DNA from: an uncultured Gammaproteobacteria bacterium
GTDB lineage: Bacteria; Pseudomonadota; Gammaproteobacteria; DRLM01
Direction: 5' to 3'
Length of the DNA: 64,000 nt
Assembly: GCA_963729605.1 (NCBI GenBank)
Contig: CAVSNY010000003.1
Span: forward strand, 320,001-384,000
Under the pieces are notes generated by a model that was not told the origin of the DNA, searched no databases, and saw only the letters and a list, made by a program, of their open reading frames with translations. Shown here piece after piece: positions 35,568 to 55,900 of this stretch; position 1 is the stretch's first letter; every line of letters starts with the position of its first letter. A program made the translations under genes and the position numbers.

Positions 35568-35571
<4 letters not shown>

Positions 35572-36887
35572 GCGGGGATGTTCATCCTTTGCGTGATATC
35601 GAATTGCGGCGGCGTGAGTTCGCGGTTCACCAACACGCTGTCCGCGCCGTCGACGCGCAGCCGCAGCCATTGCTGACCGGCGCCGAGCGCGGGGAAGATA
35701 AAATCAAGGGTGCCGGTTTGTACGGTGATGTCACCCGGCGCTTCGTTGCCGCCGGCATTGAGGCTCACGGTTTGTCCCGGCCGCACCTGCGGAGTAAAGG
35801 TTAAGGAGATCGTCACCGCGCCGCTGCCGGCGTCGCGCACGGCGCTCGAACCGGGAATATCAAGGCGCGGCGCCAGCAGCAGGGGCAGGCTGTTGCTGCT
35901 GCGGTCGAAGGTCTCGCCGGGACGTTGCAATATCACCGTGACGTTCCAAACGCCGGGCGGCCAGGCGAGCCGGGCGGCGGCGTCATTGGGCAGGGTCACG
36001 GTGATGTTCTCGCCGTTGGCGTTGAGGCCGAGATTTATCTCGATGGGGTTGACGAGGCGCGGGTGTTCGAAACGCACGCGCACATTGCCGCCTTCGAGGT
36101 TGTGGCCTTGCAGGGTGACGACGTCGCCCTGCTGCGCGGCGATTTGCTGGTGAGGCAGGGCGATGGCGGTGAGCATGGGATAGGGCGGAATCAAACCTCC
36201 CACCGCCACCACGCCGCGTTCGCGGCCGGTCGCGAGGTCGCGTTCGCCGCGCGTCAGCACCGGCAGGGCGTTGCGCGTCGCGCGGCGCGATTCGATCAGC
36301 ACCACCGAGAGGTGGTAGGCGGCGGTGGGACGATAATGGCCCTGGATCGCCGACCAGAGTTTCGACATCTCTTCGGTGCTCAATGTCTCCGGCGTAATTT
36401 TGATTTGCTCGACCTGGTCGGCGAGATCGGCGGCGGCGAGGGCCTGAAAGGCGGGCGGCAGGATGGAGCTGTCTATCGTACCGCCGCTCAGCGCGGTGCG
36501 GATCGCCTGGCGGTCGAGCACCGGCGTCTCATGCAGCAGATGCATGGCGTAGCCCAATAAGATTTCGCTGTGCAGTTCCGCCGCGCCGTAGGCGGTGAGC
36601 AAATAGTGCAGGTCCAACGCCAGCGGTGGATTGGCGAGACGCGTGCCGCGCTCGTCGCGCGAGGGCAGGCCGACGTTGCGCCAGCCGGCATTGGGCGTGA
36701 CCTGGTACAGAAACAGATTGAGCTGGGTGCGGGCGTTGGTGCCGTCGATGGCGATGCTGTCCGGCGGCACGGCGGTGACCGTGACGTTATTGCCGAGCGC
36801 GCCGGTGATGTTGTGGTCGATGAGGCCGTTGTTGAGCAGATCGCGCAACACGGCGGTGACGGCGGCGAGGGCGAGCGGGCTGCTCAT
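35568..36887 (-). CDS. DUF4255 / Pvc16-like tail terminator with Ig-like extension
   Basis: ALAAVTAVLR.LL, LNLFLYQVTPN.GWRN, PLALDLHYLLTAY; start ATG 36887. Confidence 0.92.
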
Positions 36888-37027
36888 GGCCGCGCTCCGT
36901 CCGATGTCGATCGCGGCGGGACGAGTTTCGCGCGGCATGCCATCGGCGGCGGATACGAATACGCCGTGGCGCGGACGGCGCGCGCTCGATACGCTGCGAC
37001 GGTAATGATGATCGGCGCGCCGTTCAT
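36884..37027 (-). CDS. 47-aa ORF with ATGA overlaps at both ends
   Basis: MNGAPIIITV...DGARP; starts in the upstream stop and ends in the DUF4255 start. Confidence 0.4.
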   Translation of the reverse strand: MNGAPIIITVAAYRARAVRATAYSYPPPMACRAKLVPPRSTSDGARP

Positions 37028-37794
37028 GGTTTGCCTCCGCCGCGTTTGAGGTAGTCGGCGAGCGATTGCGTCGGTTTGGGTTCAGTCCGCGGACGTGACG
37101 CGGGCGGCGGCGCGGTGTTCGCCCGCACTTCGATACGGCCGATGCTGATGTGTATCGTCGGCGCGGCCGAGCCATGCCGATCCGCCATGTCGGCGGCGAA
37201 CGCGGAGGGCGCGGGTGTTTCGCTGGAATTCATTTTATTGGCGGGGACCAAGGGCGGCTGCTCCCTCTCCCCTACCCCCTCTCCCGCGAGGGGAGAGGGG
37301 AATGAAGAGGTCGGCGCGTATTTTGACGCATCCGCGGTAAATCCTGAGTTACTTGTCGGCACACTGTTTTGTGTATCGCCCGGCACAAGCCCCTCTCCCC
37401 GCGCGGGAGAGGGGTTGGGGAGAGGCTGAGCCGACATGTGAGCGACGGAGGTAAAAGCCGCATCGTCACTTTTCCTTTGCGGAACGTCCGGTTTGTTATA
37501 CGCAGCGGTTTTCTCCCCTTCTCCCGTAAAGGGGAGAGGGGACGCATATACCGCGTTCGGTGCTTTTGCGTTCCCTCCCTCCGCGCGGGGAACGCGCAGC
37601 GAGAGGGGCAGAGCCGGTTGAGGAGAGATAGAGAGAGCGTCATCGGTTCCAGACGCATTCTGTGAAATGAGACTCGAGATATCACGCGCCGCGCCCTCGT
37701 GTTCGAAGGGCGCGAACAGACTCGGCAGCCGCGGCGCGATCAAAGGCGCCGTTCCCAAACTGCGTTGCGCGAGACGGCTGAGGAAATCGCTCAT
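37024..37794 (-). CDS. eCIS hypothetical protein with repeat-derived linker
   Basis: MSDFLSRLAQR..PRLPSLF N-terminus and IHISIGRIEVRA..SLADYL C-terminus; start ATG 37794. Confidence 0.75.
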   Translation of the reverse strand: MSDFLSRLAQRSLGTAPLIAPRLPSLFAPFEHEGAARDISSLISQNASGTDDALSISPQPALPLSLRVPRAEGGNAKAPNAVYASPLPFTGEGEKTAAYNKPDVPQRKSDDAAFTSVAHMSAQPLPNPSPARGEGLVPGDTQNSVPTSNSGFTADASKYAPTSSFPSPLAGEGVGEREQPPLVPANKMNSSETPAPSAFAADMADRHGSAAPTIHISIGRIEVRANTAPPPASRPRTEPKPTQSLADYLKRGGGKP

Positions 37795-38519
37795 GACGCC
37801 ACTCTCTGTAAATAAGCGGCGCGGCGCGCGGGGCTCAGCGCGAGGATGTCGGCCTCGCGCCAGCCGTAGGCGCGCGCCAGCAGGTGGACCTCCAGCAACA
37901 GGCGTTGCGCGCGCGCGGCGACTTCGCTCCACAGGATGTGCACGATGTCCAATAACGATTGCCAGCGATGGGCGCAGGCGGGACAGTGGAGGTCCAGCAG
38001 CAGCTCGGCCCCTGGATCGGCGGCGAGCGCGGCCTCGGCGAGCGCGTCGCGCAGGGTCGGTGGCAAGGCTTCGGTATCGATCACCTCGTCATCGCGGCGG
38101 GCTTCGACCACGCAGCGCTGCATCAATAAACGCCGGGCCTCCGTGACATCAGCGGCGGTGGCCGCGGCGGCGAGATCGAAGCTGTCGAGCGGGCGTATGC
38201 GCAGCGCGTAATTGTTTATTTCGAATGTGCATGCATGCGTGTCGTCGGGCAGTGCTTGCAGCGAACCGCAAGAGAGATCGAACTCCACCGTTTCGTTGCA
38301 CTGCGGACACACGCCGCGGCCGCCCAGCCGGTCGCCGAAGTTCAGTCGGCGCAAAATGAGCAGGCGCTGATTGCGTACACCCAGAGGCAGCGCGGCCAAT
38401 TCGTCGCGTGAACACCCAGGCTCCGCCGCCGTCAGCAAGGCCAGCGCCTGATCGACGGGGTGCTGGTGCTGCGCGGTCTCCCAGAGTTGAAGGATGTCGT
38501 GGGCGGCGAGGGCGCGCAT
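37791..38519 (-). CDS. T4 gp26-like baseplate/chaperone protein with two CxxC pairs
   Basis: LQLWE, CPQC, CPAC..W, LLLEVHLLARAYGWREADIL. Confidence 0.85.
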   Translation of the reverse strand: MRALAAHDILQLWETAQHQHPVDQALALLTAAEPGCSRDELAALPLGVRNQRLLILRRLNFGDRLGGRGVCPQCNETVEFDLSCGSLQALPDDTHACTFEINNYALRIRPLDSFDLAAAATAADVTEARRLLMQRCVVEARRDDEVIDTEALPPTLRDALAEAALAADPGAELLLDLHCPACAHRWQSLLDIVHILWSEVAARAQRLLLEVHLLARAYGWREADILALSPARRAAYLQRVAS

Positions 38520-38525
38520 ACAGAC

Positions 38526-39050
38526 TTACGCCGGCTCCGTGAAACTGGGTTCGCCGGGTTCGGTCACGTCGTAATCGCGTTCCCAGCCCTCGTTCTCCAG
38601 CTTGATGTGCTGGATGGCGACGGCGTTGGCGTTGGCATCGAGGTCGGGCAGGGCCTGGAATTCGGACACCCAGCAGCGATAGACCTTGTACGCCATGGCG
38701 AGCTGGCCGGCCTCGTTGTAGACCTCGACGATGAGGTCCTTGCGGAAATCCTTCAGCGAGACCTCGCTGCCGAGACCCGAGCCGTAGTTCCACACCTTGT
38801 TGGCCCACTTCTCGAACTCGGTGTCGTGGGTGACGCCGCGCTCGAGGGTGATGGCCTCGTATTTGGTGCGGCCCGGTGATTTACGCCCGCTGGACGGGTC
38901 GCCGCCTTCGCGGTGCTCGACGACTTCGGTACTGCGCTTCAAGGCGCTGACCTTGGAGACCCCCGCCACATAGCGGCCGTCCCATTTGACGCGGAATTTG
39001 AAGTTTTTGTACGGATCGAAACGTTGTGCGTTAACCGTGAATTGAGCCAT
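38526..39050 (-). CDS. Tail tube protein (T4 gp19 family)
   Basis: DPYKNFKFRVKWDG, PGRTKYEAITLERGVT, LENEGWERD. Confidence 0.96.
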   Translation of the reverse strand: MAQFTVNAQRFDPYKNFKFRVKWDGRYVAGVSKVSALKRSTEVVEHREGGDPSSGRKSPGRTKYEAITLERGVTHDTEFEKWANKVWNYGSGLGSEVSLKDFRKDLIVEVYNEAGQLAMAYKVYRCWVSEFQALPDLDANANAVAIQHIKLENEGWERDYDVTEPGEPSFTEPA

Positions 39051-39100
39051 GGACTTCTCCTTGTTTCAAAGGCGGCGCGGGCGGGGTGTGTCGATCGAGA

Positions 39101-39460
39101 CCCCTCTCCCTGTCCCTCTCCCGCGAGGGGAGAGGGGACGTAGTAAAGGAACGTGAACGAGACGTGTCTGTCCCTCTTCTCTCTTGATGAGAGGGAACGT
39201 GAGCAAGATGTGTCTGTTTCTCTCTCCCTTGATGAGAGGGGGCGTGAGCGAGAGGTGCCTTCTCTTTCCCCTCTCCCGCAAGGGGAGAGGAGACGTAGTA
39301 AAGGAGCGTGAAAAAACATGTCTCTGCCGCTGCTCTCGTGATGAGAGGGGACGTGAACGAGACTTGTCTGTTTTTCTTTCTCCTGATGAGAGGAAACGTG
39401 AACGAGAGGTGTCTTCTCTTTCCCCTCTCCCTCGATGGGAGAGGGGCAGGGGAGAGGGTG
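39101..39460. repeat. Degenerate tandem array (about 41-54 bp units) of CTCTC..GAGAG hairpins
   Basis: Recurring TGATGAGAGG(G)AACGTGAACGAGA..TGTCT units bracketed by CCCTCTCCC/GGGAGAGGG. Confidence 0.8.
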
Positions 39461-39487
39461 AGTAATTAAACCGCACACGCATCGTTA

Positions 39488-41071
39488 TCACGTCTGGATC
39501 TGCCCGGCGATCTGTTGGATCTTGATCACCACGAACTCGGCGGGTTTGAGCGGCGCGAAGCCGACGACGATGTTGACGACCCCCGAGTTGATGTCGTTCT
39601 GCGTGGTGGTCTCCTTGTCACATTTGACGAAGTAGGCGTCGCGCGGACTGCTGCCTTGAAATGCGCCCTGGCGGAACAGGCCCTGCATGAAGGCGCCGAG
39701 GTTGAGACGGATCTGCGCCCACAGCGGTTCGTCGTTGGGTTCGAACACCACCCACTGCGTGCCGCGGAACAGGCTTTCTTCGAGAAACAGCGCGAGGCGC
39801 CGCACCGGCAGGTATTTCCACTCCGAGGCGAGCTGATCGGCGCCGCGCAGGGTGCGCGCGCCCCACACCACGCGGCCGATCACCGGAAAGCTGCGCAGGC
39901 AATTCACCGCGAGCGGATTGAGCTGGCCGTTTTCGCCGTCGGTGAGTTTGGTGGTGAGTTCGACCACGCCGTTGAGCACCGCGTCGTTGCCGGCCGGCGC
40001 CTTCCATACGCCGCGCTGGCCGTCGGTGCGCGCCATCACGCCGGCGACCGCGCCGCAGGGCGCGAAGTCGGCGAGGCGGTTTTCCTGCAAGGGGTCGGGC
40101 AGGCGCAGGCGCGGGAAATACAATGCGGCGTTTTCGCTGCGCGCCAGCCCCCAGGCCGCGCTGTCGAGACCCGCGGCGCCGGTGAGATCGGAGTGCAGAT
40201 TCCAGGTGCTGAGCGGATCGACCACGTACATCGCCCGGCGCTGTTTGCAGTATTGCGCGGCGGCGCTGCGGGTCTGCGCATTGACGTCGCCGCCGACCTC
40301 GCGGGTGAGCGGCGGAATGCAGAGCAGATTGAACAGGTCCGCCTTTTCCAGCGCCCAGATGCCCTGTTTCGCCGCTTCCAATGCGGCGAGCGAGATCTGG
40401 TTGTCGGTGATCGCCGCGCCTTCGTTGCCGGTGGCGGTGAAGGCGGTGGACGAGGCGTTGTCGAGCAGGGGATCGGCGCCGGCGGGCGGATTGCCGTGGG
40501 CGACGGGGCGCAGCGCCGGCACCGTGCCCGGCGGCGTGACGATGCGCACGAGCTGCGATTCCTGCTCCAATACCCGCGTGACGAAACGGGCGTTGTTGGG
40601 ATCGGTGGAGAGATTCACGTAGCGTTCGGTGACGCCGGTGGTGGTGTCGCGCACCGCGAGATTGAACAGGCTATTGGCCGGATCGGTGGCGAGCGACGGC
40701 CGCGTGTTGTGATCGACGCGCACTCGCAGTTTTTCGCCCCAACGCCCGGGACTCGCCGCGACCAGATTGAAACCCGCCGCGAGGGTGAGGGTGGCGGCGG
40801 CCGCGCCGTTGTGCACGCGCACGATCAGGGCGTCGGTGCCGCCGTTCTGAAAGAATTGCTGCACCGAGTAACTCATGCTGCTGTCGCGCCACAGGCCGCC
40901 GAAGACGCGCTCGAATTCGGCGTAGCTCTGCACGCGTACCGGCTCGTTGGCGGGCCCGCGCAGGGCGCGGCCGACGAAGGCGGTGATCGAGGTGGCGACG
41001 CCGGTGATGGTGCGGACCCCGCTCGGCACTTCTTCGATGTAGACACCGGGATAGGATAGGGTGACGGGCAT
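39488..41071 (-). CDS. Contractile tail sheath protein
   Basis: YPGVYIEE, FFQNGG, RGVWKAPAG, VWGARTL, WVVFEPN, FAPLKPAEFVVI. Confidence 0.97.
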   Translation of the reverse strand: MPVTLSYPGVYIEEVPSGVRTITGVATSITAFVGRALRGPANEPVRVQSYAEFERVFGGLWRDSSMSYSVQQFFQNGGTDALIVRVHNGAAAATLTLAAGFNLVAASPGRWGEKLRVRVDHNTRPSLATDPANSLFNLAVRDTTTGVTERYVNLSTDPNNARFVTRVLEQESQLVRIVTPPGTVPALRPVAHGNPPAGADPLLDNASSTAFTATGNEGAAITDNQISLAALEAAKQGIWALEKADLFNLLCIPPLTREVGGDVNAQTRSAAAQYCKQRRAMYVVDPLSTWNLHSDLTGAAGLDSAAWGLARSENAALYFPRLRLPDPLQENRLADFAPCGAVAGVMARTDGQRGVWKAPAGNDAVLNGVVELTTKLTDGENGQLNPLAVNCLRSFPVIGRVVWGARTLRGADQLASEWKYLPVRRLALFLEESLFRGTQWVVFEPNDEPLWAQIRLNLGAFMQGLFRQGAFQGSSPRDAYFVKCDKETTTQNDINSGVVNIVVGFAPLKPAEFVVIKIQQIAGQIQT

Positions 41072-41098
41072 GTGTTCTCTCCTTTGGTGGACAGGTTT

Positions 41099-41464
41099 TT
41101 ACGGCGTGGCGTCGCGCCCGATCAGGATTTCGATGACCGCGTCGGCGCCCGTGTTATTGGTGAAGGTCAGACTGGTGGCGCCGCCGAGCAGGCCGACGGC
41201 GCCGGTGCCGATGAACACCTGCGGGCCGTCCAGGGGCACGTCGTTGCCGTTGACCTCGTAGCTCAGGTCGGCGCTGGGCGCTTGCGGATTGATAATGAGC
41301 AGCGCGACATCGGCGTTCGGTACCAGATCGACCTGTTGTGTCACGCCGTCTTCGATGCCGACTTCGAGTTTGTCGTAGGCGTCCACTTCCAGGTCACCCG
41401 CCGCCGAGAGGCTGGGCCCGTTGAGGGCCTGCGCCACGTAATTCCAGCTGATTTTTTCTGCCAT
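41099..41464 (-). CDS. Beta-rich hypothetical protein upstream of the sheath gene
   Basis: AAGGAG RBS, biased codon usage, operon position. Confidence 0.8.
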   Translation of the reverse strand: MAEKISWNYVAQALNGPSLSAAGDLEVDAYDKLEVGIEDGVTQQVDLVPNADVALLIINPQAPSADLSYEVNGNDVPLDGPQVFIGTGAVGLLGGATSLTFTNNTGADAVIEILIGRDATP

Positions 41465-42168: not shown

Positions 42169-43203
42169 CTAAGAAGACTTAGGTAAACGCTTGAACTCCG
42201 TCCTGGCGAGTCCGTATTTTTTGATGAGCTTGCCCAGGGCGCTGCGTTCCTTGCCGGAAAGGTCGGCGGCCAGGCTGACATTGCCATGAGTTTCACTCAG
42301 CAAAGAGGAGAGGTAGGATTTTTCGAATTGGGCGATGGCGCGGGCCTTGGCGGTCTGAAAATCGCCGAGTGTGATCCGGCTGAGACTGCGCTCGGCCTTG
42401 CGGCGATCGTACACCGGTTTAGTCTCATCGAGACTAAACCGGATCAACGGATCATCGGACACCAGGAATTGCCGGTGGATGAGGTTCTCGAGTTCGCGCA
42501 CATTGCCCGGCCAACTATAACGTAGAAAGGCGCTGATGTTATCGGGATGCAATGAGCGTGGTGCTTGTTGGTATTCCTGGGCGAAGCGCGCGATGAAGTT
42601 TTCCGCGAGATGCAGCACATCGTCGCCGCGTTCCCGCAACGGCGGCAAATCCAGACATACCAGATTCAATCTAAATAACAGATCTTCGCGGAAGAGGCCC
42701 TTGTTCACCATGCCTCGCAGGTCGCGGTTGCTCGCGGTGATGATCCGCACGTCGGCGTGGCGGATGCGCCCGCCCACCGGGCGATAGGCGCGATCTTCCA
42801 AAAAGCGCAGCAACACGACCTGCGCCTTGGGACTCATGACTTCCACCTCGTCGAGAAGCAGGGTGCCGCCCTCGGCCTGCGCGATGATGCCGGCCCGCGC
42901 GACCTTGGCATCAGTGAATGCGCCGCGTTCGCAACCGAACAGTTCGCTTTCGAGCAAACCATCGGCGATGGCGCCGCAATTGATGGGAATGAAGGGTTGA
43001 TCGCTGCGCGCGCTAGAATAATGAATGGCGCGCGCCACCAATTCTTTACCGGTCCCCGTCTCGCCTTGGATCAACAAGGTGGCGTCGCGGGTGGCCAGTT
43101 TTTTAATCAGAGACAACACGTGTAAAAACGCCGGGGAGCACCCCACCAGCTGAGTATGCGTGCACTTTTCCGCGGGATTATTGAAATGAGACCCGAGCGC
43201 CAT
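42169..43203 (-). CDS. sigma54-dependent activator lacking an N-terminal sensor domain
   Basis: AAA domain begins within about 20 aa; GETGTGKE, GAFTDA, WPGNVREL, Fis HTH. Confidence 0.92.
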   Translation of the reverse strand: MALGSHFNNPAEKCTHTQLVGCSPAFLHVLSLIKKLATRDATLLIQGETGTGKELVARAIHYSSARSDQPFIPINCGAIADGLLESELFGCERGAFTDAKVARAGIIAQAEGGTLLLDEVEVMSPKAQVVLLRFLEDRAYRPVGGRIRHADVRIITASNRDLRGMVNKGLFREDLLFRLNLVCLDLPPLRERGDDVLHLAENFIARFAQEYQQAPRSLHPDNISAFLRYSWPGNVRELENLIHRQFLVSDDPLIRFSLDETKPVYDRRKAERSLSRITLGDFQTAKARAIAQFEKSYLSSLLSETHGNVSLAADLSGKERSALGKLIKKYGLARTEFKRLPKSS

Positions 43204-43427
43204 CCGTGCGTTTTCCTTGTAATGGAAGAATCCGAACTCCTCTGTATCGCTAAGAGGGTTCTAAATCCAGCAGGAAATTCCATCCGGTCATGTCAATTCG
43301 TGACAACACCGACGATGACAGTGTAGGCGTCTTAGTGAAGCTCGATCAAGATCAATGTTGTAATGATGGGGGGCTTGAGCACCGGGAAAATATCCGATGA
43401 AAATACTCAGGACCTCCATCGCTGTGC

Positions 43428-43787
43428 TTATTTAACCGGTGCTTGGCGGCGATGACGATATTTGATGGTGACGTGGGGTTGAGGATCATTCCGCTGTCCA
43501 TCCAAAGGCGCATCGATCGGCTGTTCCGCGTCATGATTCGGGTTGGCATGGTATGCGGCGGATCCGGCGGGAGGGGTTTTATTGTTGCGGCGTAGACGCA
43601 AATAACCCCGGCGACCCGACTCCTGAGAGACTTGCGGTGAGCGTGCTTGAAGCACCTTCACTTGAACGGGAACCCCTTTATCGACCGCACTGAGAGTTTG
43701 TACGGCCCGCTGTATATCGGTGTGATGAAAATATTGTTCCAATTGCATGGGGGAAGCTTGAGAAAGGTCAATGGTAATGATGATCAT
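43428..43787 (-). CDS. Hypothetical protein
   Basis: ORF only; no recognisable motif. Confidence 0.3.
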   Translation of the reverse strand: MIIITIDLSQASPMQLEQYFHHTDIQRAVQTLSAVDKGVPVQVKVLQARSPQVSQESGRRGYLRLRRNNKTPPAGSAAYHANPNHDAEQPIDAPLDGQRNDPQPHVTIKYRHRRQAPVK

Positions 43788-44139
43788 TGGTTGTTCGTGC
43801 TACTTAAATTAAGAGATTAAATGGGACGGCTATGTACTTCAAAACTTTTTAAGCATGAAAAACGATTGTAAGCGTCACGTTATTCATTATGAGCAGTGGG
43901 ATGCTAAATCACCTTTTAAATATTATCCATCACCAATTTCATTATTGCGCGATATTCCCGATTCCATTTCAAATGCGGAGGATATGGACTGAATAAACCC
44001 AAGCCATTTTTTGCCGCCTTTAATCGTAACGAACGATTGTTTGGCGCCATCTTGGTGCGCCGGGGTTGCATATCGGCTTTGTCCCGGTTGGGAACGTACA
44101 AAAATCCGCTCTTGTCTGGCCTTTGGGGGTCCATCCTAT

Positions 44140-44167
44140 TATGCGCATAATCATTACGGTGGTTGAA
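44140..44167 (+). other. Degenerate dif-like site (left junction of the integrated element)
   Basis: TATGCGCATAA-TCATTA-CGGTGGTTGAA; shares TGCGCATAATCATTA with 45956-45970. Confidence 0.8.
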
Positions 44168-44520
44168 CTCGGCATGGTCATATTGCCCCCCTTGTGAGCA
44201 AAAAATAAAGGTTTTCGCAATGAAAAAAGCCTGTGCCTGCCCCAAAAGCGGTTTTGCAGGCGCGGGCTGACCTTGTAGAACACCCCTCGGCAGATGCCGC
44301 GCCGCCGCCGCTGCGGTAATTCGAGGCGTGGCAGGAAGAGTTAACAGCTTCGCTCCGCTACGCTCACCGGAGCGCCTTCGTCGCGATTGAATACCCACTG
44401 CCGTGGCAGGACACGAACGGCGCGGGTACGGTGGCTCGTGCCTCGCCATCCGGATCCGCGCCGCTGCGGCTACCCGTATCTCGGATCCTGATGCGACGGC
44501 TGTTTTTAACGATGCGGACC

Positions 44521-45108
44521 TCATACCACGTCATCCAGCGGTTGAGTGCATCGAAAGAAATCGTTGATCTCAAGGGACGGGTTATGCGTCATGTCATCCG
44601 GCCAGTCCTCGGGATACTCACCCAGGCGCTCGATGACCACCCGCCAGTCCCCCATGAACTCGATGCTAGCCACAATCGCCTGGGTGCCCACCGGCCAAAA
44701 GGCCCAAAAGGCCTCCTCCGGCGGTCCCCAGGGCGCGACCACCCGAAACTCGGCATGCAAAAGGCGCATGATGCGCCAGGGTTCCTTGGCGAGCAGATCC
44801 ACCAATTCGGAATGCGACGACACGCCAAACCACGCTTGAGACTGGGTGGGGACAGGCCCTTGCAACGGCACCGCAACCCCGGCGGCCTTGAGAATGGCGA
44901 GATGCTGAGGCCAGAGGGCAGGGGAGACCCGTTTACGGGCCTCCGCCCAACCCAGGGCGTTGGCAAGACACCACGTACCGTAAGCCCCACCCGCGAGCTC
45001 CGCCGGATCGGCCAACAGAGGGGCACCCACCGACGGCGAGAACACGGCGACCTGACACGCCTGGATCAGTCCAGCCGCAAAGACCCCTGAAATAAGATGG
45101 TCATTCAT
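44521..45108 (-). CDS. Hypothetical protein with a segment resembling the C-terminus of gene II/X-family Rep proteins
   Basis: GGAGG RBS; AYGTWCLANALGWAEARKRVS..W..HLAILKAAG. Confidence 0.6.
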   Translation of the reverse strand: MNDHLISGVFAAGLIQACQVAVFSPSVGAPLLADPAELAGGAYGTWCLANALGWAEARKRVSPALWPQHLAILKAAGVAVPLQGPVPTQSQAWFGVSSHSELVDLLAKEPWRIMRLLHAEFRVVAPWGPPEEAFWAFWPVGTQAIVASIEFMGDWRVVIERLGEYPEDWPDDMTHNPSLEINDFFRCTQPLDDVV

Positions 45109-45527
45109 GGCTCAGACCTCCCCGATTGTGGTGGTGAGAATCAGGGCGAAAACCCGAAAGTGAGCCACCATGGCTCAAGAGTCCACTGGTTATAGTATGT
45201 GGACTCTCGTCATGCACCACGTCGGTGCAAGACGAAAAAGTGGGTACTTGCTCATGGCTCAGACCTCCCCGATTTGGGATGAAAAAGTCCCACCCGTGAG
45301 ACAAAGTGGGGGTTGTTACAGGGGACCCCCACTTAGCCGCGGCGATCACAAAGCGACCTTCATGCCAAGCTTCGGACTGGGTGCGTACTGACCCTTGAAA
45401 GGGGGAGGTGGCGGGATGCTTATTCATGGTTCAGCCCTCCCCGATGGTGGTGGTGAGTGCCACCCATGGCACTTAGTGCGGGTGTTACTGTTACCCGCAC
45501 ACCCCCGGCGATCACAAAGCGGCCTTC
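45103..45527 (-). repeat. Three tandem modules: origin-like hairpin pair plus repeated RBS/ATG
   Basis: TCATGGCTCAGACCTCCCCGATT at 45105 and 45252, variant at 45424; hairpin pairs at 45161-45207, 45287-45334, 45456-45500. Confidence 0.85.
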
Positions 45528-45916
45528 TTGCGTTGAAGCCTGTCCTGATTCCATTCGAGCTCCGCCTGGCCGAGCTGGTGGCGATAGTCGCGGATGAGCT
45601 GGTACAGGAAGGGCAACACCTGGATATCGCCCGGGGCGAGCCCACCCTTGGCGAAGCCCGGCGGGAACAAGTAGCCGTTGTGCACCTCCCAGCCGTCCCA
45701 GCCTGGCCAGGGCACATAGCCGGCCTGAATAGCCAGCAGTCGGAGCGCCGTGGGATTCACCGGCCGGTCGCGACCCCAGCGCCGGTAAGTCTGCTTGGCG
45801 ACCAGACAGAGGGCCGCCGCTTGCACGGTGCTGAGCCCGGCCAGCGTCTGCAAGGGCCGCGGGGTGGTCAAATTGCCCTGATAACCTGCTTGAAGCAACT
45901 CGGTTAACTCCCTCAT
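45512..45916 (-). CDS. HTH + DUF3653-like protein (XafT-like Xer activation factor)
   Basis: GLSTVQAAALCLVAKQTYRRW HTH then WPGWDGW...GYLFPPG; lies 37 nt from the dif-type site. Confidence 0.75.
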   Translation of the reverse strand: MRELTELLQAGYQGNLTTPRPLQTLAGLSTVQAAALCLVAKQTYRRWGRDRPVNPTALRLLAIQAGYVPWPGWDGWEVHNGYLFPPGFAKGGLAPGDIQVLPFLYQLIRDYRHQLGQAELEWNQDRLQRKKAAL

Positions 45917-45953: not shown

Positions 45954-45981
45954 AGTGCGCATAATCATTATTATGTTAAAT
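45954..45981 (+). other. dif-type XerC/XerD recombination site
   Basis: AGTGCGCATAA-TCATTA-TTATGTTAAAT versus E. coli GGTGCGCATAA-TGTATA-TTATGTTAAAT. Confidence 0.92.
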
Positions 45982-46529: not shown

Positions 46530-47381
46530 TCATGCTGCAATCGCAGCATGACGGCGGTATTGCCTGTAGTAGTTTGCCTCAGCTTCTGCTGGAGGGATAT
46601 ACCCCAGAGGCTCTAATAGCCGGTGGTGGTTAAACCACGAGACCCATTCCAGGGTCGCCAGCTCCACGGATTCCCGGGTTTTCCAGGGTCCCCGACGATG
46701 GATCAGCTCGGCCTTGTACAGCCCGTTGATCGTCTCGGCCAATGCGTTATCGTAGCTGTCGCCCTTGCTGCCGACCGAAGGCTCGATGCCGGCCTCGGCC
46801 AGTCGCTCGGTGTAGCGGATCGAGACGTATTGCGAGCCCCTGTCGCTGTGATGGATCAGGGCATCCTCTGGTTCGGGCTGCCGGGCGTACAGAGCTTGCT
46901 CCAGTGCGTCGAGCACGAAGTCCGTGGCCATGGTGCGGCTGACCCGCCAACCGACGATGCGCCGGGCGAAGACATCAATGACGAAGGCCACATACAGCCA
47001 GCCCTGCCAGGTCGACACATACGTGAAATCCGACACCCAGAGCTGGTTGGGCCTGTCCGCCTTGAACTGTCGATTGACCCGGTCCAGCGGGCGTGGCGCC
47101 GAGTGGTCAGGCACGGTGGTGCGAACCGCCTTGCCACGGCGCACACCCTGCAGGCCCAGGCGCTTCATCAGACGCTCGACCGTACAACGGGCCACCTCGA
47201 TGCCCTCGCGGTTCAGCTGCCGCCAGACTTTGTCGGCGCCGTACACCTGCAGGTGGGTGTGCCAGACACGCTGAATATGCGACATCAATACCTCATCGCG
47301 CTTGGCCCGGGCGCTGCGCAGATCCGGATCGCGCCGCCGGGCCGCATGGCGCCGGTAGGCCGATGGGGCAACCTGCAACAC
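46530..47381 (-). CDS. IS3 OrfB (DDE integrase core)
   Basis: WVSDFTYV, HHSDRGSQY, DNALAETING. Confidence 0.95.
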   Translation of the reverse strand: MLQVAPSAYRRHAARRRDPDLRSARAKRDEVLMSHIQRVWHTHLQVYGADKVWRQLNREGIEVARCTVERLMKRLGLQGVRRGKAVRTTVPDHSAPRPLDRVNRQFKADRPNQLWVSDFTYVSTWQGWLYVAFVIDVFARRIVGWRVSRTMATDFVLDALEQALYARQPEPEDALIHHSDRGSQYVSIRYTERLAEAGIEPSVGSKGDSYDNALAETINGLYKAELIHRRGPWKTRESVELATLEWVSWFNHHRLLEPLGYIPPAEAEANYYRQYRRHAAIAA

Positions 47382-47434
47382 CTTGCAGATCGGCTCGACC
47401 CCATAAGCATCCCGGTGCTGGTCGATGTAGGTAT

Positions 47435-47758
47435 TTACGACTTCAGTTTGCGGTCGAGCTCCGCCTGTGCGAAAAAAGCGCTGGCGGTACGCAGTATCTC
47501 ATTGGCGCGCCGCAACTCCTTGTTCTCGCGCTCCAGCTCCTTGATGCGCTGTGTCTCGGACGTGGTCGTGCCAGGACGCGCTCCGGCATCGGCCTCCGTA
47601 CGCTTAACCCACTCCAGCAGCGTCCCGGGTACACAGCCAATCTTCGGGGCGATCGACTCCACGGCCATCCACAACGACGGGTATTCCCCGCGATGCTCCT
47701 GCACCATTCGAACCGCACGTTCACGGACTTCAGGTGAAAACTTGTTCGACTTTTTCAT
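47435..47758 (-). CDS. IS3 OrfA
   Basis: [28 protein letters not shown]; TTTTTTC frameshift window. Confidence 0.95.
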
Positions 47759-48063
47759 GGCTCCATTCTCTCAAATGTTGGAGCCTCCTCAAAACCAGGG
47801 GCGGTTCACCCCTATTAATAACAAAGCGGCTATGTTTTACAAATTCTTTTGCATTTTCGGAGGAATCCCCAAAATCGTCTTTAAATGAATGTTTCAGAAA
47901 TTCCAATGAGCTTGGGTCAGCATATAGAACAAAGAGAGTCTCATTGCCGGAGATATTCCATGAGCCCGCGTAGGGCAATGAAATGGACTCCTCCCTCCTA
48001 ATCGGCATCGATGTGCCAGACTGTTGTTTGTAAGCAAACAGTCAATAGCAAGGAGGAGTCCAA

Positions 48064-48987
48064 ATGAAGCTTAAACGAATCGGTATTGATCTGGCAAAGA
48101 GCGTATTTCAGGCGCATGGCGTAGATAGTCATGAGCACGTCATGTTGAAGAAAAAGTTGAAACGTCATGAGGTGCTGAATTGTTTTCGCCAGATCGAACC
48201 CTGCGTGGTTGCGATGGAGGCTTGTGGCAGCGCCCACTACTGGGCTCGGGAGCTTGAGAAGCTCGGCCATCAGGCAAAACTGATTGCCCCACAATTTGTT
48301 AAGCCCTATGTGAAGAGTGGCAAAAACGACGCCAATGATGCCGAGGCTATCTGCGAGGCGGCCAGCCGTCCCGCCATGCGCTATGTTGCAGTGAAAACTG
48401 CCGAGCAACAGGCCGGACAGGCCTTGCATCGAGTCAGGAGCCGATTGGTCAAGGCACGCACCGCGCTGGAGGATGGCGAGAACGAGCTGCCGGGACCGAT
48501 GCGAGAACTGCTCGCTCAACTGTCAGAAGAGCTTGAGCAGAAAGATGTCCACATTGCCCTGCTGGATCGGCAGATCAAAAATCAGTGCGCTCAAGATGAG
48601 CGCATCAGACGCCTGATGGCGCTCGAAGGTGTCGGCCCCATCAGCGCCAGCGCGATAGTCTCAGCCATCGGTGATGCCCGCCAGTTCAAGAGTGGCCGGG
48701 ATCTGGCCGCCTGGTTGGGGCTGGTTCCCAGTCAACACTCCAGTGGTGGCAAGGAGCGATTGGGGGCGATCTCAAAGCGCGGCGACACATACCTGCGCAC
48801 CTTGTTGATTCATGGAGCACGCGCGGTGATCAGCCGCTGCGAAAAGAAAGAGGATCGTAAGAGCCAATGGCTCAAAGGAATCATGGCGAGGCGCAACAAG
48901 AATATCGCCACGGTAGCGCTTGCCAATAAAAACGCCCGTGTTATCTGGGCAGTTCTCAGTCGCGGTGAAAATTATCAGCCGGCCTGA
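48064..48987 (+). CDS. IS110-family transposase, probably with an in-frame internal deletion
   Basis: IGIDLAK, MEAC, KNDANDAEAI, GLVPSQHSSGG, SKRGD.YLR. Confidence 0.93.
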   Translation: MKLKRIGIDLAKSVFQAHGVDSHEHVMLKKKLKRHEVLNCFRQIEPCVVAMEACGSAHYWARELEKLGHQAKLIAPQFVKPYVKSGKNDANDAEAICEAASRPAMRYVAVKTAEQQAGQALHRVRSRLVKARTALEDGENELPGPMRELLAQLSEELEQKDVHIALLDRQIKNQCAQDERIRRLMALEGVGPISASAIVSAIGDARQFKSGRDLAAWLGLVPSQHSSGGKERLGAISKRGDTYLRTLLIHGARAVISRCEKKEDRKSQWLKGIMARRNKNIATVALANKNARVIWAVLSRGENYQPA

Positions 48988-49922: not shown

Positions 49923-52900
49923 CTAATCCTTAAATACCTCAAATATTATTCTAACAATCTCCACAGCTTTTTCACCAAAGGTCCTCGGCGCAGGCGTAGG
50001 TTTTTGAGCCTCAGCAGCCCGTTTCAGACCCTCAAATAGCTGCGATTCAGCATACTTTACATCCAGAGTTCCAGCCTTAATTTTAGAAGCATTTATTTCG
50101 CACTGTTTTCGTAATAAGAGCTTTTGGGCGGGACTAAGACTTTGTCCAGCGACTTCCTTCAACAAAAAATTCAATTCACTCGTATTGCCTCTTAGAACAG
50201 CTTGGTAGACTGCCCCCTCAATTGAGTTCTTGGGTATGATCAAACCAGAGGGGTCGGTTAAATTAATCGGATCATTGAGCACGTAGGCATAAAGATTAGT
50301 TCCATCGCCTGCAAATAAAATCGGATCCTTCGCCGTCCACCTCCCCGTCTCCGCATCATAATCCCGCGCGCCGAAGCGGGTGAGCTTGGTATGCTGATCA
50401 TAGATACCGCCCGCAAAGCCAAACGGCTGGAAGCCGGGGTTGGTGTCTTGGGTAATATAGCCGAACTCATCGTAATCCAGTCGTTGAGCGATGGCTCCGG
50501 TGGTCGTATTGACGACCAGTCTCGGACTGCCCAAGTGATCAGAGAGAATGCGGTAGGTCTCGCCGCCTTTGATCAGGTAGTCCGGCACGTTGAGCTTGCT
50601 GCCGTAGACGAAGCGGGCGACGACGGCGCCGCTGCCGTTGAGTTCGGCGACGGGGTTGAGTTGGTCTTGGTAGAGGAAACCTTGAACCAGCGTGCCGTTG
50701 AGCTTTTTACCGACGCGACGGTTGCGGCCGTCGATGAGGTAGTCGATGATCGTGCCGCCGGGTAACGCGACGTGGCGCAGATTACCGATCACATCGTAGC
50801 TGTAAGTGGTGGTTGTTCCGGAAACGGTTTTGCTTAGCAATTCGCCGTTGGCGGTGTAGCCGTAGGCGGCGCCGTTGTAGCCGGTTAAACGATCTTGGGC
50901 GTCGACAGTGGCGGTGATGGCGCCGCGGCGGTCAAAGCCGCCGAGGCGGTTGCCGTTGCTGTCGTAGCTGTAGCTGGCGACGGTGGCGCCGTTTTGTTTG
51001 ATTTGGTAGAGCCGGCCCGGCGTGTCGTAGATGTAGTCATAGGTGGTGGTGACACCGGCTTGGGTCTCGATCTTTTGGGTGATGCGGCCGAGTTTGTCGC
51101 GGGTGTAAGCGGCGTTGTAAAGCGCGCTGCCGCTGTACGCCGCCGAGTGGCCGGCCAGTTCGGCGAAGCCATTGTAGCTTTGCGCGGTGCTGAGGTTGCC
51201 CAAAGCGGTGGCGGTGAGCAGGCCGTTCTGCGCATCACGAGTGAGGGTTACCGCGCCGGCTAGTGTCAGCAGGCCGTCGTTGTCGTAAGCGTAGTTGATG
51301 GCGCTGCCGTTGACGGATAAGCCAGTCACTTGAAACATGTTGTTGTAGGCGCGGCTGACGCTGCCGGCCACCGCCCCGCTCCAGGTTTCATTCACGGGCA
51401 GGAAGCCGTCGTAGGTGTAATCGAGGGTATCGCCCGACGGCGCGGTGAGGCGGGTCACTTGCCCACGAGTGGGATCATAGCTCACGGCGATTTGCCCCTG
51501 CGGCAAGACGACCGCGCTCAAACGGCCGCCGGTGTCGTAGCTGAAATCGATGCGCTGATTATCCGGCCGGGTGATTTGGGTGAGCTGCTTGTCGAGGTTA
51601 TAGCTGTAATGCGTGACCGTCGCGCCGCCGGACAGCGCGGGCGGCGTGTAGTGGTCTTGCTGATCGACGGCGGTGTAACTGAAGGTATGGGCGCCGCGGC
51701 CCGGCGGGGTGATCGAGGTCACGTTGCCGTTGGCGTCATAGCCGTAGGCGATGTGACGGCCGTCGGGCAAAGTCTGTTGCGTCACCCTGCCCGCGAGGTC
51801 GTATTGGAAGTTCATCGCCCGGCCGAGGGCGTCGGTGAGCGACGCGACGTAGCCGCCGGGGTTGTAGGCCAGCGCGACGGAACGCGCCGCCGCGCCCGTT
51901 CCCTGATTGATGCCTTGCAAACGGCCGCGGGCGTCGTAACTCCAATTGATCGCTTCGATACCGCTTGCCTGGGCAGTAACCAGACGGCCTTTGACGTCGA
52001 GGACCGCGCTGCTCTGCCGCGACAGCGGCGTGGTATCGGTGAAGGTGCGGTCGGCGGCGTTATAGCTGCTGGTATAACTGCGGCCGTTGATGCTGAGGGT
52101 CGTGGTCTCACTGGTCAGGCTGAGCGGATCGTGCGCCGTGGCGAGCGTGGCCGTGCGGGTGATCGTGGACGTTGATGTCAAACCGCTTGGCGTGGTGATG
52201 GTGGTATTTTTAGGCAAGGGCGCCTGCATGCCGAAGCGCGGATCGGGACCATGCAGGACGCTGATCATGGTGCCATCCGGTTCCAGCCGCGTCTCCGTGC
52301 CGTCGGGCTTGACGGTGGTAATGGCAAGGGTGCCGTCGGGCGCGGTGTTGGTGCGGCGCACATCACCGATCGGCAGCCGTTCCACCGCGTAACTGGTGGT
52401 GCGGCCCAGGGCCGAACTCATGCTGACGTGGTAGCCGGTTTCGAGATCGGCGCGGGTCAGGTTCCAGAAACCGCCCGCGGCGTTTTCATCGCGGGTCAGG
52501 CGACCGCGGGCATCATAGGTCATGTGCGAGGTGTGATTGCGCGGGTCGGTGAAGCTGAGCAGCAAGCCGTCGGCGGTATAAGTCGCTTGATAGGATTCGC
52601 CGGCGGGATTGGTGATGTGAGTGAGGTAGCCATTGGCGTTTAAGCTCAACGTAGTGCGTTGGCCGTCGGGCGCGACGATGGCGGTGGGTTGGCCAAGGCT
52701 GTCGCGTTCCACGGTAGTAACGTTATTGGTGCCATCGGTGACGGTGGTGAGGTAGCCATTAGCGTCATAGCTGAACTGGTAAAGCACGGCGCCGGTGCGA
52801 GCGTCAAGGGTGCGGAGATGGCGGCCGGAGGCGCTGAAGTGATAAAGTTCGGTGCCGTCACGCGATGCAATTAGAAAGTCACTAAGTGATATGCCCGGGA

Positions 52901-55900
52901 GAGTAGATGCTACCTTGCGGATACGAATATTGAATAAGTCCGCAATGTACAAATTGCCTTGTGCATCCGTTACTACACTTCGGGGGTTAAAAAACCTCGC
53001 CTGGGTGGCCGGTCCACCGTCGCCGCTGTAGCCCGGCGTACCTGTGCCTGCCAAGGTGGTGATACGCCCGTTGGAATCCACCTTACGGATACGCTGGTTG
53101 CCAGTGTCCGCAATGTACAGACTACCCTGTGAGTCCAAAGTTATGTCGGTAGGATTTGCTAGCCCGGCTTCGGTAGCGGGTCCGCCATCGCCGAAATTGC
53201 CAAAGTTCCCCCCTGCGACGGTTGTGATGTCTCCATTAGGACTTACCTTGCGGATGCGCTGATTGTTTGTGTCCACGATGTATAAATTACCCTCGAGGTC
53301 CAGCGCTATACCATGAGGTTGATTTATTTTGGCCTGTAAAGCCGGTCCGCCATCACCACTGTAGCCATCCACGCCTGTGCCTGCGATGGTGGTAATGCGC
53401 CCGGCGGGGTCTACTTTGCGGATGCGGCTGTTGAATGAGTCCGCGATGTAAAGATTGTTCTGGCCATCTACCACTACACTCCGAGGGTTAGAAAGTCTGG
53501 CCTGGATGGCGGGTCCGCCATCGCCACTGTAGCCCTGCTCACCTGTACCAGCTACTGTGGTGATGTACCCGGTAGGGTCCATTTTTCGGATGCGCTGGTT
53601 GCCAGTGTCCACGATATACAGATTACCCTGGGTATCCACTGCCACATCGGAAGGAGCAGCAAGCATAGCCTGGATGGCGAGCCCGCCGTCCCCGGCGTAT
53701 CCTGATTCACCGACACCAACTACAGTGGTGATTATTCCGGTGGGATATACCTTGCGTATGCGCTGGTTATTTAAATCTGCGATGTAAAAACTGCCCTCTG
53801 CATCCACCGTCACTGCCCATGGGGAATAAAACATAGCCTCAGTGGCGAGTCCGCCGTCGCCGCTATTGCCGAAAGCTGTCTGACCTGTTCCCGCCACGGT
53901 AGTAATTACCGTATCAGCTCCATTTCCCTGGCTAATTCTAGTGGTGCCGTCGCCTATTTGGAGCACTAAGCCTGCGCTGTCATACTGATGGTGCACATTT
54001 AATGTCCATCCACTCATGCCGTGAGCTTTAACATCCTCGTTTTTTATCGACTTAGAATGGTTTTGCCATAACGTGATTTCCTGACGGGCGATATTTCCAG
54101 TCATAGGCGTACCATTTGAAAAAGCGGCAAATGCCGATCCCGATGATAATGATATTGGGGTTAGATAAACTCCGTTATAAACATAACCGATCTTAATCGT
54201 CCCTGTTTGTGTACCCTGCAACGAGTTACCGTAGTCATCGCTGCCATCCCAGATAAAAGTGTAGTGTTGATTCGGCAGTGCGGCGAAGCTTTGAAAAAAT
54301 CGCTGCCCTGCCACCTCGATGATGAGTTCGATACGCTTGAGGCTGGCGGGCACGGTGGTGTTGCTCAAAGGGATGTTCACCGTGTAGCCGGCTTTGTGGC
54401 CGGGCACGCGGTCGCTGCGATAATGCAATGAGAACGGGGTGCCGGTAATGGGCACGGTCTCACCGAGCACCTGGTTCTGGCACTCGATAATGGAGCCCTG
54501 CTCACACTCCGGCTCGTCTTCTTTGATTTCGACCTTGGGAGGCGACGGTGGATTGGGTGGCGTCGCGTCCGGCGGCGGGCCGAAAGGCCAGTTGCAATCC
54601 CAGGGTGTGAAGTGGATGACGGGCACGCGCCACAGGCTTTTGCCGGGCGAATACAGCGTGGCAAGTTGGGCGCGTTCGGCGTCGGTGATGGTGAGCGCCG
54701 CGAGGGCGGCGGCGTTGGCGGGGTTGCCGCTGCCGTCAAGGTCGAGATTGGCGAGGCCGTTGTTGATGCTCAGCACCTTGATGATGCGGCCGTTGTCGGA
54801 CGGGATCCACGCCGCTCGTTCGCGGTTGTAATACCCCGCCGGCACGATGCCGCCCACCGGAAAGTTCAGGAAATTATCGACGTAGAAATAAACCGGTTGA
54901 GTGAAGCGCACGTCTTTGGCGCCGGCGGCGATGGCTTCGTCGACGCTGAGCTCCACGGCGTAGGTGTAACCGCTATTGGGCGGCAATGCGCCGGGCATGG
55001 TGTTGGGACCGTTGGCGCCCACGGTGTATTCGGTGGCGCGCACGTGCAAGCTGGTCAAGGGCTGCGTCGAGCCGTCTGCCAGCACCATCTCCGCTTGCGT
55101 GCCTTGCGGGAAGAGGATGGTGGCCTGGCGGGTGCCGTCGCTGTCGGTGACCACGTTGCCCCGCGCCGCTTGCATGGGAATGGCGGCTTGCAGATTGATG
55201 GCCGTCACTTGGCTGTCGACCGGAATCATCACTACCTCGGGCAGCCAGGCGTAGTCCTGCCAGGGCGCGTTGACTTGGCGCTGTACCGGCAGGTAACCGT
55301 CTTTTTGATAGTTCACGGTGAGATAACCGCCGCCGTTGACGGCGAGATCGAACATGCCGTCGGCACGGCTCAAGGTCTGACCGAATTCGGGGTGTTGATG
55401 AATGGTGACGGTGACGCCGCCGAGTGCGGCATTGTTGCGATCCAGCACCTTGCCGCGCAATACCGCGGCGCGGCGGGCTTCGATGGTACCTTGCGTCACG
55501 CCGGTTTGAATGGGGTTGCTACCGGTATAAAGAAACTTAGTCGCGGCGAAAACCGTGGTGGCGACGGTGGGGTCCACCGGCGGTGCGACGGTCGCCGGAT
55601 CCGGCGGCAGCGATGAAGTTACCGAGGTGCTGGCGGGCGCGCTGGTATTGCCGGCGGTGTCATTGACGCGGATGGTCAAGGTATCGCCGCCCTGCGCGGC
55701 GATGTTGGCGTTGAAGGCGCCGAGGCTGTTGGCCGTCGCCATCACGATGTCGCCGGTGCGGGTGTTGGTGAGGGTGACCCGTGCGCCCGCCTCCACGCTG
55801 CCGGCGGCGCCGGTGACGTTGACGATGCCATTGCTCGGTTCACTCACCGATACCGATCCCATCTGCACGGCGGCGGGTGCCTGGGTGTCGAGCACCAGGG

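Follow-up and report, generated by a model that had tools for sequence, protein, structure and literature searches.

We analyzed a 64,000-nt stretch of the genome of an uncultured gammaproteobacterium (assembly GCA_963729605.1, contig CAVSNY010000003.1, positions 320,001 to 384,000; hereafter the window) in which three hairpin modules resembling filamentous-phage replication origins adjoin each other between a gene related to xafT and a gene for a 195-residue protein, p195. Our data suggest that this array is the origin region of a 1.84-kb TLCphi-like IMEX (an integrative mobile element that exploits Xer) that lacks a replication initiator (Rep), in effect an integrated natural miniphage or satellite of filamentous phages; we hold this reading to be moderately probable. 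From their sequences, the modules are predicted to be inovirus (Ff-type) plus-strand origins of two classes, with module 1 in one and modules 2 and 3 in the other, and the array appears to be a chimera formed by deletions within a tandem array of at least three different IMEXs. A preliminary description had taken the locus for a Rep-less satellite that gathers origins answering to different Reps and thereby parasitises or titrates several filamentous phages, with debris of serial tandem integrations and deletions as its alternative. The Ff-type origins, the XafT-like gene, the missing Rep, the variable module number and the origin by deletion all stand, on the evidence of gene stubs, IMG/VR contigs and relatives given below; the multi-helper role stays tentative.

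Three adjoining modules with the layout of Ff-type origins

All three modules lie on the minus strand and share one layout, in which a perfect 8-10-bp stem closes a 9-12-nt loop containing TAAC and is followed 0-2 nt later by a 6-7-bp second hairpin with a 3-4-nt loop. Module 1, of the Ff-like class, occupies 45161..45207 and reads (A)GAGTCCAC-ATACTATAACCA-GTGGACTC(T)-TGAGCCA-TGG-TGGCTCA. The IMEX class comprises module 2 at 45287..45334 (AAGTGGGGGT-CCCCTGTAACA-ACCCCCACTT-T-GTCTCAC-GG-GTGGGAC; stem 45334..45304, second hairpin 45302..45287) and module 3 at 45456..45500 (GTGCGGGT-AACAGTAAC-ACCCGCAC-TA-AGTGCCA-TGGG-TGGCACT; stem 45500..45476, second hairpin 45473..45456). Re-reading the minus strand, we agree with the preliminary description to the base on module 1 (45206..45161, GAGTCCAC-ATACTATAACCA-GTGGACTC-T-TGAGCCA-TGG-TGGCTCA), and also on the layout, coordinates and differing stems of modules 2 and 3 and on the TAAC in all three loops. 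The f1/M13 origin, which it had cited for comparison, reads GAGTCCAC-GTTCTTTAATA-GTGGACTCTTG-TTCCAAACTGGAACA in NC_003287, and module 1 shares with it the whole 8-bp stem and the TTG that follows; the M13 origin core has its 8-bp stem and GTGGACTCTTG as in module 1. Modules 2 and 3 differ from each other in the loop and the second hairpin, and in the first stem by one compensated pair.

When folded as single-stranded DNA (ssDNA), module 1 (z -5.17) and module 3 (z -3.15) form both hairpins in the minimum-energy structure, with 0 of 200 shuffles as good. Module 2 gave z -1.61, with 11 of 200 shuffles as good; its minimum-energy structure contains the first hairpin alone, and its second hairpin includes a G-T pair. 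A search for the pattern GAGTCCAC-N9-14-GTGGACTCTTG gave a single match in the window, and 0 of 100 shuffles contained it. Just past module 1, at 45141-45152 of the minus strand, we also observed that GGTTTTCGCCCT is similar to GGTTTTTCGCCCT, a sequence located immediately 5' of the hairpin in the M13 origin; here it stands on the opposite side of the hairpins, and the likeness is possibly due to chance.

We aligned 18 modules almost without gaps, and found conservation of the loop GTAAC/GTAGC and of the CAC-TTT-GT that flanks it; at inner positions of the stem the letters vary, with compensation. Compensatory changes were present in 14 of 15 base pairs, and 91.5% of cells were paired, versus 37-50% for slid partners, a covariation count that is inflated because the seeds had been picked as perfect hairpins. 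A covariance model, R1, gave 47 matches at E<=1e-3 across 94 sources, all on the strand of the XafT-like gene and 18 of them its own seeds. Model R2, built from 15 modules of other loci with the window excluded, recovered module 2 (48.4 bits, E 1.3e-10) and module 3 (47.7 bits, E 1.9e-10), and in this search neither module 1 nor M13 was found. An R1 match at 56216-56306, inside a large repeat-protein gene, was set aside as spurious (24 bits with a 31-nt insertion; 19 bits with R2).

Two predicted origin classes in inoviruses and IMEXs

The Ff-like pattern GAGTCCAC-N9-14-GTGGACTCTTG recurs in 45 IMG/VR contigs, mostly of 4-10 kb. The exact loop of module 1, ATACTATAACCA, is present with an identical stem in seven of them, followed by a second hairpin of the same form, TG...CATGGTG...CA. 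In L109, L115, L123, L133 and L146 (L-numbers denote related loci from genomes, metagenomes and IMG/VR contigs), a reading-frame start, ATGAT[TC]GA.., lies ~10-25 nt past the second hairpin. Nearly half of the pattern contigs (22/45) encode a protein 22-28% identical to the IMEX Rep described below, and in L108 and L115, whose coordinates we compared, this Rep relative starts just past the module. None of the 45 contigs carries an XafT-like gene, a search of IMG/VR with the XafT-like family found no relative, and the consensus pattern of the IMEX-class origin matched 0 contigs in IMG/VR.

The IMEX class is found in more complete elements. L008 and L029 are tandem copies of a 2.5-kb element that begins with attL and an XafT-like gene, continues with one module, the gene of a 348-aa protein and another module, and closes with an XRE repressor on the opposite strand and a junction site. 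The 348-aa protein is an initiator of the G2P/Cri family (PF05144, E 1.5e-13; phrog_702, E 3.3e-36), and E-values to PF05144 among the Reps include 1.3e-17. A search of phage records with the L008 Rep (tblastn, E<=1e-5) returned no match. In L040 we identified an XafT-like gene, a module, a G2P Rep, a gpV-type ssDNA-binding protein (PF02303), a DUF2523 protein, a Zot/pI protein (PF05707) and a coat B protein (PF05356), in all, a complete inovirus prophage. The IMEX-class module abuts the Rep gene in L008, L029 and L040, ending a few bases before the Rep start or overlapping it, like the Ff origin before gene II. With both classes taken together, a module stands just upstream of a Rep gene in L008, L029, L040 and L030 and in the IMG/VR contigs L108, L109, L115, L123, L133 and L146. 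In the window, the gene behind the array is that of p195, which has the C-terminal motif of a Rep and is no full Rep.

These contexts bear out the earlier assignment of the modules to Ff-type plus-strand origins: the stem and loop of module 1 are identical in uncultured inoviruses before gene II, and modules 2 and 3 match the module that precedes G2P-type Rep genes. They also agree with the earlier view that the three modules are mutually different, in that two origin classes are represented. That the two classes are used by distantly related Reps fits different specificities, without being proof of them. In L008 (3371-3434) and L029 (7708-7772) we noticed a second, different origin-like module downstream of the Rep gene and before the repressor, which may be a termination site, a second origin or a remnant. 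Searches of solved-structure sequences with the XafT-like and Rep alignments gave nothing significant (best E 0.37 and 0.016); we took the latter match, to p53, as chance.

A 1.84-kb insertion bordered by Xer sites at dif

The array lies within an insertion of 1.84 kb at the chromosomal dif, with the Xer sites attL (45954-45981) and attR (44140-44167), both read on the minus strand, as its borders, a setting absent from the preliminary description; the only two genes between them encode the XafT-like protein and p195. attL is a complete dif-like site, ATTTAACATAA-TAATGA-TTATGCGCACT (XerD arm, central region, XerC arm), 65 bases upstream of the 134-aa XafT-like gene. It is single-copy in the window and in the 3.48-Mb genome, and the cumulative GC-skew maximum of the 482-kb contig (C3) lies ~15 kb from it. 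Because attL has full XerC and XerD arms, the chromosome, as read from its sequence, retains a usable dif, and attL probably still serves in that role. attR reads TTCAACCACCG-TAATGA-TTATGCGCATA: its XerD arm is degenerate and agrees at 4 of 11 positions, its central region is that of attL, and its XerC arm is the chromosomal one. Where tandem copies meet in L008 and L029, the junction sites are built alike, again with a degenerate XerD arm.

Two relatives indicate what the unoccupied locus looks like. In a contig from sequencing run X1 (all four runs covered, X1 and X2 among them, consist of assembled contigs, and stretches that they leave uncovered carry no evidence of absence), the right flank is 92% identical (11 of 138 letters differ) and is joined to a complete, unoccupied dif exactly at the edge of the XerC arm. 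A genome of the same genus, G001, has its dif beside sequence homologous to window positions 42425-43941. The unoccupied dif has the central region TAAACA in both. The central region is TAATGA in both sites of the window and TATACA in most related loci; set against the TAAACA of X1 and G001, TAATGA in both sites of the window seems element-derived. Relatives of p195 are absent from 11 of 11 other genomes of the host family.

The 3' non-coding part of the element (44168..44520, minus strand) folds as ssDNA with z -0.89 and contains no packaging-signal-like hairpin. A 202-aa open reading frame at 43916-44524 is probably not a gene, since it spans attR. DNA searches with a 1.5-kb region returned no match among phage records; among plasmids, the Xer site alone matched, in 12 records. 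Between attR and the flank shared with G001, we observed ~200 nt (43942-44139) that are missing in G001 and present in the X1 relative, which may reflect ordinary divergence or the remnant of an older insertion.

An XafT-like protein and a protein with a Rep C-terminal motif

The upstream gene (45512..45916, minus strand) encodes a 134-aa protein with a helix-turn-helix (HTH) and a tryptophan-rich, DUF3653-like part. We aligned its family with a coding sequence of Vibrio phage TLC-Kn1 annotated as similar to VC1465, and detected relationship by hhalign (prob 95.5, E 1.6e-8, 70 columns) and by tblastn (E 2e-3); in TLC-Kn1 this coding sequence adjoins the "left dif sequence". DUF3653 was matched in 7 of 22 aligned family members (best E 1.1e-4). 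Together these matches support the XafT-like assignment made in the preliminary description, VC1465 being XafT, the XerD activator of TLCphi (PMC6744903). By analogy, the 134-aa protein is presumed to activate XerD. The family comprises 33 cluster representatives, from purple sulfur bacteria and unclassified Gammaproteobacteria. A dif-like site is present at 30 of 37 related genome loci, in 29 cases upstream of the gene on the same strand, and at 33 of 56 metagenome loci.

The second gene, behind the array (44521..45108, minus strand), encodes p195, which we examined by hhalign, an exhaustive profile search and an AlphaFold2 (AF2) model. Its residues 39-79 are homologous to a stretch of the G2P-type Rep of the family, residues 275-315 (hhalign prob 97.6, E 2.7e-12), and p195 itself has no Pfam hit and no PHROG hit. 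The profile search (E<=0.001) returned 119 cluster representatives, including two-domain, N-domain-only and C-domain-only proteins; ~20 of them, of 328-403 aa and matched at their C-termini, are Reps. In the AF2 model (pLDDT 78), a helical N-terminal half is joined to a C-terminal half that forms a small beta domain, and this domain stands alone in the smallest relatives. Fold searches returned nothing at E<=0.001 in either PDB or BFVD. The best PDB matches were the HTH-WYL proteins DriD, PafBC and CapW (E ~0.03), with SH3-like or FeoA domains matching the C-terminal half, which offers a weak lead that p195 may be an HTH plus SH3-like protein. In Ff phages, pX, the C-terminal part of pII, modulates replication.

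Absence of a Rep gene and a candidate class of mini-IMEXs

The preliminary description had called the element Rep-less, and our search of the whole genome (94.5% complete) is in agreement: it revealed no PF05144 protein, no PF05707 (Zot) protein, no relative of the L008 Rep besides p195, and no module outside the array. Similarly small elements exist elsewhere. In 10 of the 23 elements for which we found both ends, the sites lie 998-1814 bp apart, a spacing too small for an XafT-like gene plus a 1.05-kb Rep, which suggests that the small elements form a class of Rep-less mini-IMEXs. We listed the frames of eight small loci apart from the window, and in six (L002, L004, L022, L044, L048 and, judged by eye, L091) an XafT-like frame precedes a small one that is related either to p195 or only to the C-terminal half of p195; no p195-related frame was seen in L046 and L088.

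Two side observations concern this group. The Xer sites of L088, L046, L048/L055, L004, L022, L044 and L091 are 998-1562 bp apart; L004, L022, L044, L048/L055 and L091 each carry an XafT-like gene and a small relative of the p195 C-terminal half, and some of these elements have no module match by model. These 998-1562-bp mini-elements appear to be an undescribed class of minimal IMEX. In L040 (1-6128), a p195-type mini-element stands in tandem with the complete inovirus prophage, with a junction site bearing a degenerate XerD arm between them, and the pair is a candidate for a natural satellite and its helper.

Formation of the array

The spacers between the modules contain remnants of genes. 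As the preliminary description had noticed, each module is followed by a common leader, ATCGGGGAGG.CTGA.CCATGA, and we found this to be a repeat family (D1) of three copies with 70-88% identity. Past module 3, at 45366..45455 (minus strand), the unit-3 leader with its ribosome-binding site (RBS) and ATG (45427) runs into the stub of a p195-like gene (MNKHPATSPFQGS.. and then VRTQSEAW). In a tblastn search with p195, the VRTQSEAW region matched at 69% over 13 aa at 45403-45365, corresponding to p195 residues 81-93 (9/13 identical). The next segment (45328..45365, minus strand) is a copy of the 3' end of the XafT-like gene, likewise seen earlier, which we attribute to a second element; it belongs to repeat D2 (38 nt, 82% identical to 45494-45531, 166 nt apart). 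Past module 2, the unit-2 leader, RBS and ATG (45255) are followed by a short open-frame stub (45208..45286, minus strand) that runs straight into module 1. Past module 1, the p195 leader with its RBS (45109..45160, minus strand) is 88% identical to the unit-3 leader.

The order past module 3 (leader, ATG, MNKHPATSPFQGS, a stretch like p195 81-93, and 38 nt of an XafT-like 3' end) points to a deletion that began within one element's p195-like gene and reached the end of the XafT-like gene in the following element. With p195-like and XafT-like stubs between the modules, serial tandem integrations and deletions, which the preliminary description had offered as its alternative, fit as the route by which the array formed.

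Relatives show similar products, with one, two or three modules, so that related elements of variable module number, which had been suggested as something to look for, do exist. L002 is a two-module case of this design: the L040 prophage is matched at 96.5% identity by its XafT-like gene and module a, 17 nt of the L040 phage Rep start follow, and then come module b and a p195-like gene, which are 94.6% identical to the mini-element in tandem before the L040 prophage. Adjacent modules are also present in L030 and, more weakly, in L054. One module is present in L044 and L004, and P0038 leaves room for one, a count read from its protein, an XafT-like/p195 read-through with a p195 part 74% identical.

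A 544-nt contig from run X2 (depth 8.2) carries, in order, the XafT-like 3' end, module 2, 30 other letters, module 1, 5 letters and p195. Its aligned pieces mismatch the window at 4/127, 4/57 (module 2), 2/55 (module 1) and 9/268 positions. The contig lacks unit 3, and 16 letters at the resulting joint could belong to either side; 41 nt of the p195 leader are absent.

Chromosomal surroundings

On the attR side, the chromosomal flank contains a gene for a sigma-54-dependent activator without a receiver domain (42169-43203; PF00158, E 3e-59, and HTH_8), which is kept beside dif in G001. Directly past attL, 46530-48987 holds an IS3-family transposase pair (rve domain at 46530-47381; 47435-47758) and an IS110-family transposase (48064-48987), and the flank on this side has no counterpart beside dif in G001. 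Judged by eye from its translation, a 2565-aa open frame at 49923-57620, in which the spurious R1 match falls, has many YD/RHS-like repeats and a divergent C-terminal end. Also by eye, a minus-strand gene run at 35568-41464 resembles a contractile injection system or phage-tail-like cluster, with a sheath-like 527-aa protein (39488-41071), a tube-like 174-aa protein (38526-39050) and SPLP/GEG-rich short repeats at 38939-39491.

Discussion

We propose a life cycle for the element that is modelled on its relatives. The XafT-like protein would activate XerD, and FtsK-independent, XerD-started recombination would join attP, with its degenerate XerD arm, to dif, as in TLCphi (PMC6744903). The element would both integrate and excise through attP, and the excised 1.8-kb circle would replicate only if a co-resident inovirus or Rep-bearing IMEX supplied a G2P-type Rep. 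The second hairpin would be the binding site of this Rep, and the ..TAAC.. loop of the cognate module the place where it nicks; in an alignment with the Ff loop and its nick position, the cut is predicted to precede the AAC of ..T-AAC... As the three modules are non-identical, as many as three kinds of Rep could act. Through the shared motif, p195 may act on the Rep of the helper or at the origin, much as pX does in Ff, and packaging and transfer would depend on the coat and assembly proteins of the helper.

Several points weigh against reading the array as the origin region of a Rep-less IMEX of this kind. The genome contains no helper (no Rep, no Zot and no other module) and gives no sign of present activity, and no circular form or excision joint was seen in the runs, which consist of contigs only. 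Of the genomes searched, the window's own was the only one with the Ff-like pattern, which was missing from all 11 others of the order and from all 400 sampled from the class, and no candidate helper for module 1 is known in the host lineage. We identified no packaging signal and no minus-strand origin in the element (fold of 44130-44540, z -0.89). The window's own XafT-like protein has no Pfam hit; the p195 motif is not recognised as Pfam Phage_X, and the analogy with pX draws on where the motif lies within the Rep and not on its sequence. For nicking, Rep specificity and XerD activation alike, we extrapolate from relatives. With one compensated pair as the sole difference between their first stems, modules 2 and 3 may not differ in specificity. 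The argument from deletion ends, which we turn to now, rests on three junctions, and the events may be recent.

Within this framework, it is possible, and we suggest it tentatively, that the array is a selected multi-helper adapter, in which several origins of different Rep specificity are kept so that the element is replicated and spread by any of several helpers or drains their Rep. Equally tentatively, mini-IMEXs at dif would capture the origin of a neighbour through fusing deletions, p195 would be the element's own origin- or Rep-binding factor, and the array would be a record of past helpers. Against this stands the somewhat doubtful view that the array is inert debris, the leftovers of serial tandem integrations at dif and of deletions, in a dead remnant that keeps a usable dif. 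The gene stubs and the 38-nt copy of the XafT-like 3' end between the modules are what debris would leave, and the genome lacks helper, Rep and Zot; the variation in module number among relatives fits ongoing gain and loss, and direct repeats with a 16-nt shared core flank unit 3, which could be lost by simple recombination. Tandem IMEX arrays are also common, being present in 12.6% of Vibrio genomes in one survey (PMC12715192). Yet all three first stems are perfect (8-10 bp), even though the unit-3 stub suffered further deletions, and both genes are intact open frames. At three independent junctions, two in the window and one in L002, hundreds to thousands of bases were removed, and the ends nevertheless lie close to the modules, ~20-110 nt past one and 0-40 nt before the next. 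In the X2 relative both spacers have changed and the modules are conserved, and adjacent modules recur in L002 and L030. Taken together, the comparative data lean slightly towards constraint on the modules.

The array could instead benefit the host as a decoy, with the modules and p195 soaking up or blocking the Rep of incoming filamentous phages, which would make the locus an anti-inovirus interference element and not a spreading parasite. Laboratory miniphages with duplicated origins outcompete full-length phage for Rep. Rep-less laboratory miniphages live on the products of full-length phage (PMC7064744), p195 keeps just the 41-residue C-terminal motif of Rep and no nuclease part, and the element sits stably at dif with no helper. 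We consider a decoy improbable: no defence evidence speaks for it, though no search of PADLOC was made, the XafT-like gene and both att sites, which are mobility features, have been kept, and absence from 11 of 11 related genomes means that this is no conserved host trait. Most improbable of all is that the hairpins are transcription terminators, attenuators or RNA regulatory structures and not DNA origins. In module 2, the second hairpin has TTTTT behind it and was classed as terminator-like, and T-runs follow the second hairpin in several relatives. However, module 2 is the only one of the three to score, and the regional count of three such sites is not above that of shuffles (2.1, sd 1.4). 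The conserved loop GTAAC/ATAAC is unneeded by terminators, and module 1 has, in its stem and loop, exactly the bases of the element before gene II in inovirus contigs and shares the M13 core. We rejected this explanation, as a G+C-rich hairpin with a T-run occurs at module 2 alone.

The Rep-less IMEX that we favour resembles several known systems in part. It is like TLCphi in its integration at dif through an attP with a poor XerD arm, in having XafT (HTH plus DUF3653) beside the site, in being a small element without morphogenesis genes, and probably in its need for a helper filamentous phage; unlike the window element, which has no Rep, a protein with the Rep C-terminal motif and three origins, TLCphi has its own rolling-circle initiator, Cri, and the repressor TlcR (PMC6744903). 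The 2.5-kb elements L008 and L029, with XafT-like gene, Rep and XRE repressor, are the true TLCphi look-alikes. Serial integration of IMEXs at one dif and later rearrangement are known from tandem CTXphi/RS1/TLC arrays and the hybrid phages derived from them (PMC6744903, PMC12715192), and L008, L029 and L040 are examples here. What is known to result are entire prophages, or satellites that have an RstA or Cri of their own, whereas in the window a single gene pair is left of the array and the origins of three elements adjoin.

The modules share with the Ff (M13/f1/fd) plus-strand origin the stem-loop with a nick loop, the short inverted repeat that follows at once and, in relatives, the Rep gene behind it. 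They differ in the loop and second hairpin of module 1, which belongs to a ATACTATAACCA subclass, in the other class represented by modules 2 and 3, whose own model does not find M13, and in the lack of a Rep gene behind the array in the window. Interfering particles of f1 carry duplicated origins. Ff and Pf miniphages, mini-genomes without a Rep, retain the origin and the packaging signal and act as cheaters towards a full-length helper (PMC7064744). Those miniphages arise in laboratory serial passage, are episomal and carry copies of one origin; the window element is natural and integrated, has its own Xer activator and att site, and carries origins of different classes. With integration predicted to be like that of TLCphi and replication like that of Ff miniphages, it differs from all of these systems in stacking origins of different classes. 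To our knowledge, filamentous-phage satellites are known from a few Vibrio cases with their own initiator, and Rep-less miniphages only as laboratory cheaters. In the literature covered, we met with neither a Rep-less IMEX nor a stack of heterologous inovirus origins; the supplementary tables and DUF3653 tree of PMC6744903 may already list such elements.

The locus and its 1.0-1.8-kb relatives suggest a natural class of Rep-less, Xer-integrating miniphages that can stack origins from their neighbours at dif. The conserved origin motif offers a means of searching genomes for inovirus origins and the satellites that go with them. If the origins work, the array would provide a simple model of a satellite that widens its range of helpers or blocks several phages, and natural pairs of origin and Rep with which to study the specificity of G2P-type initiators.

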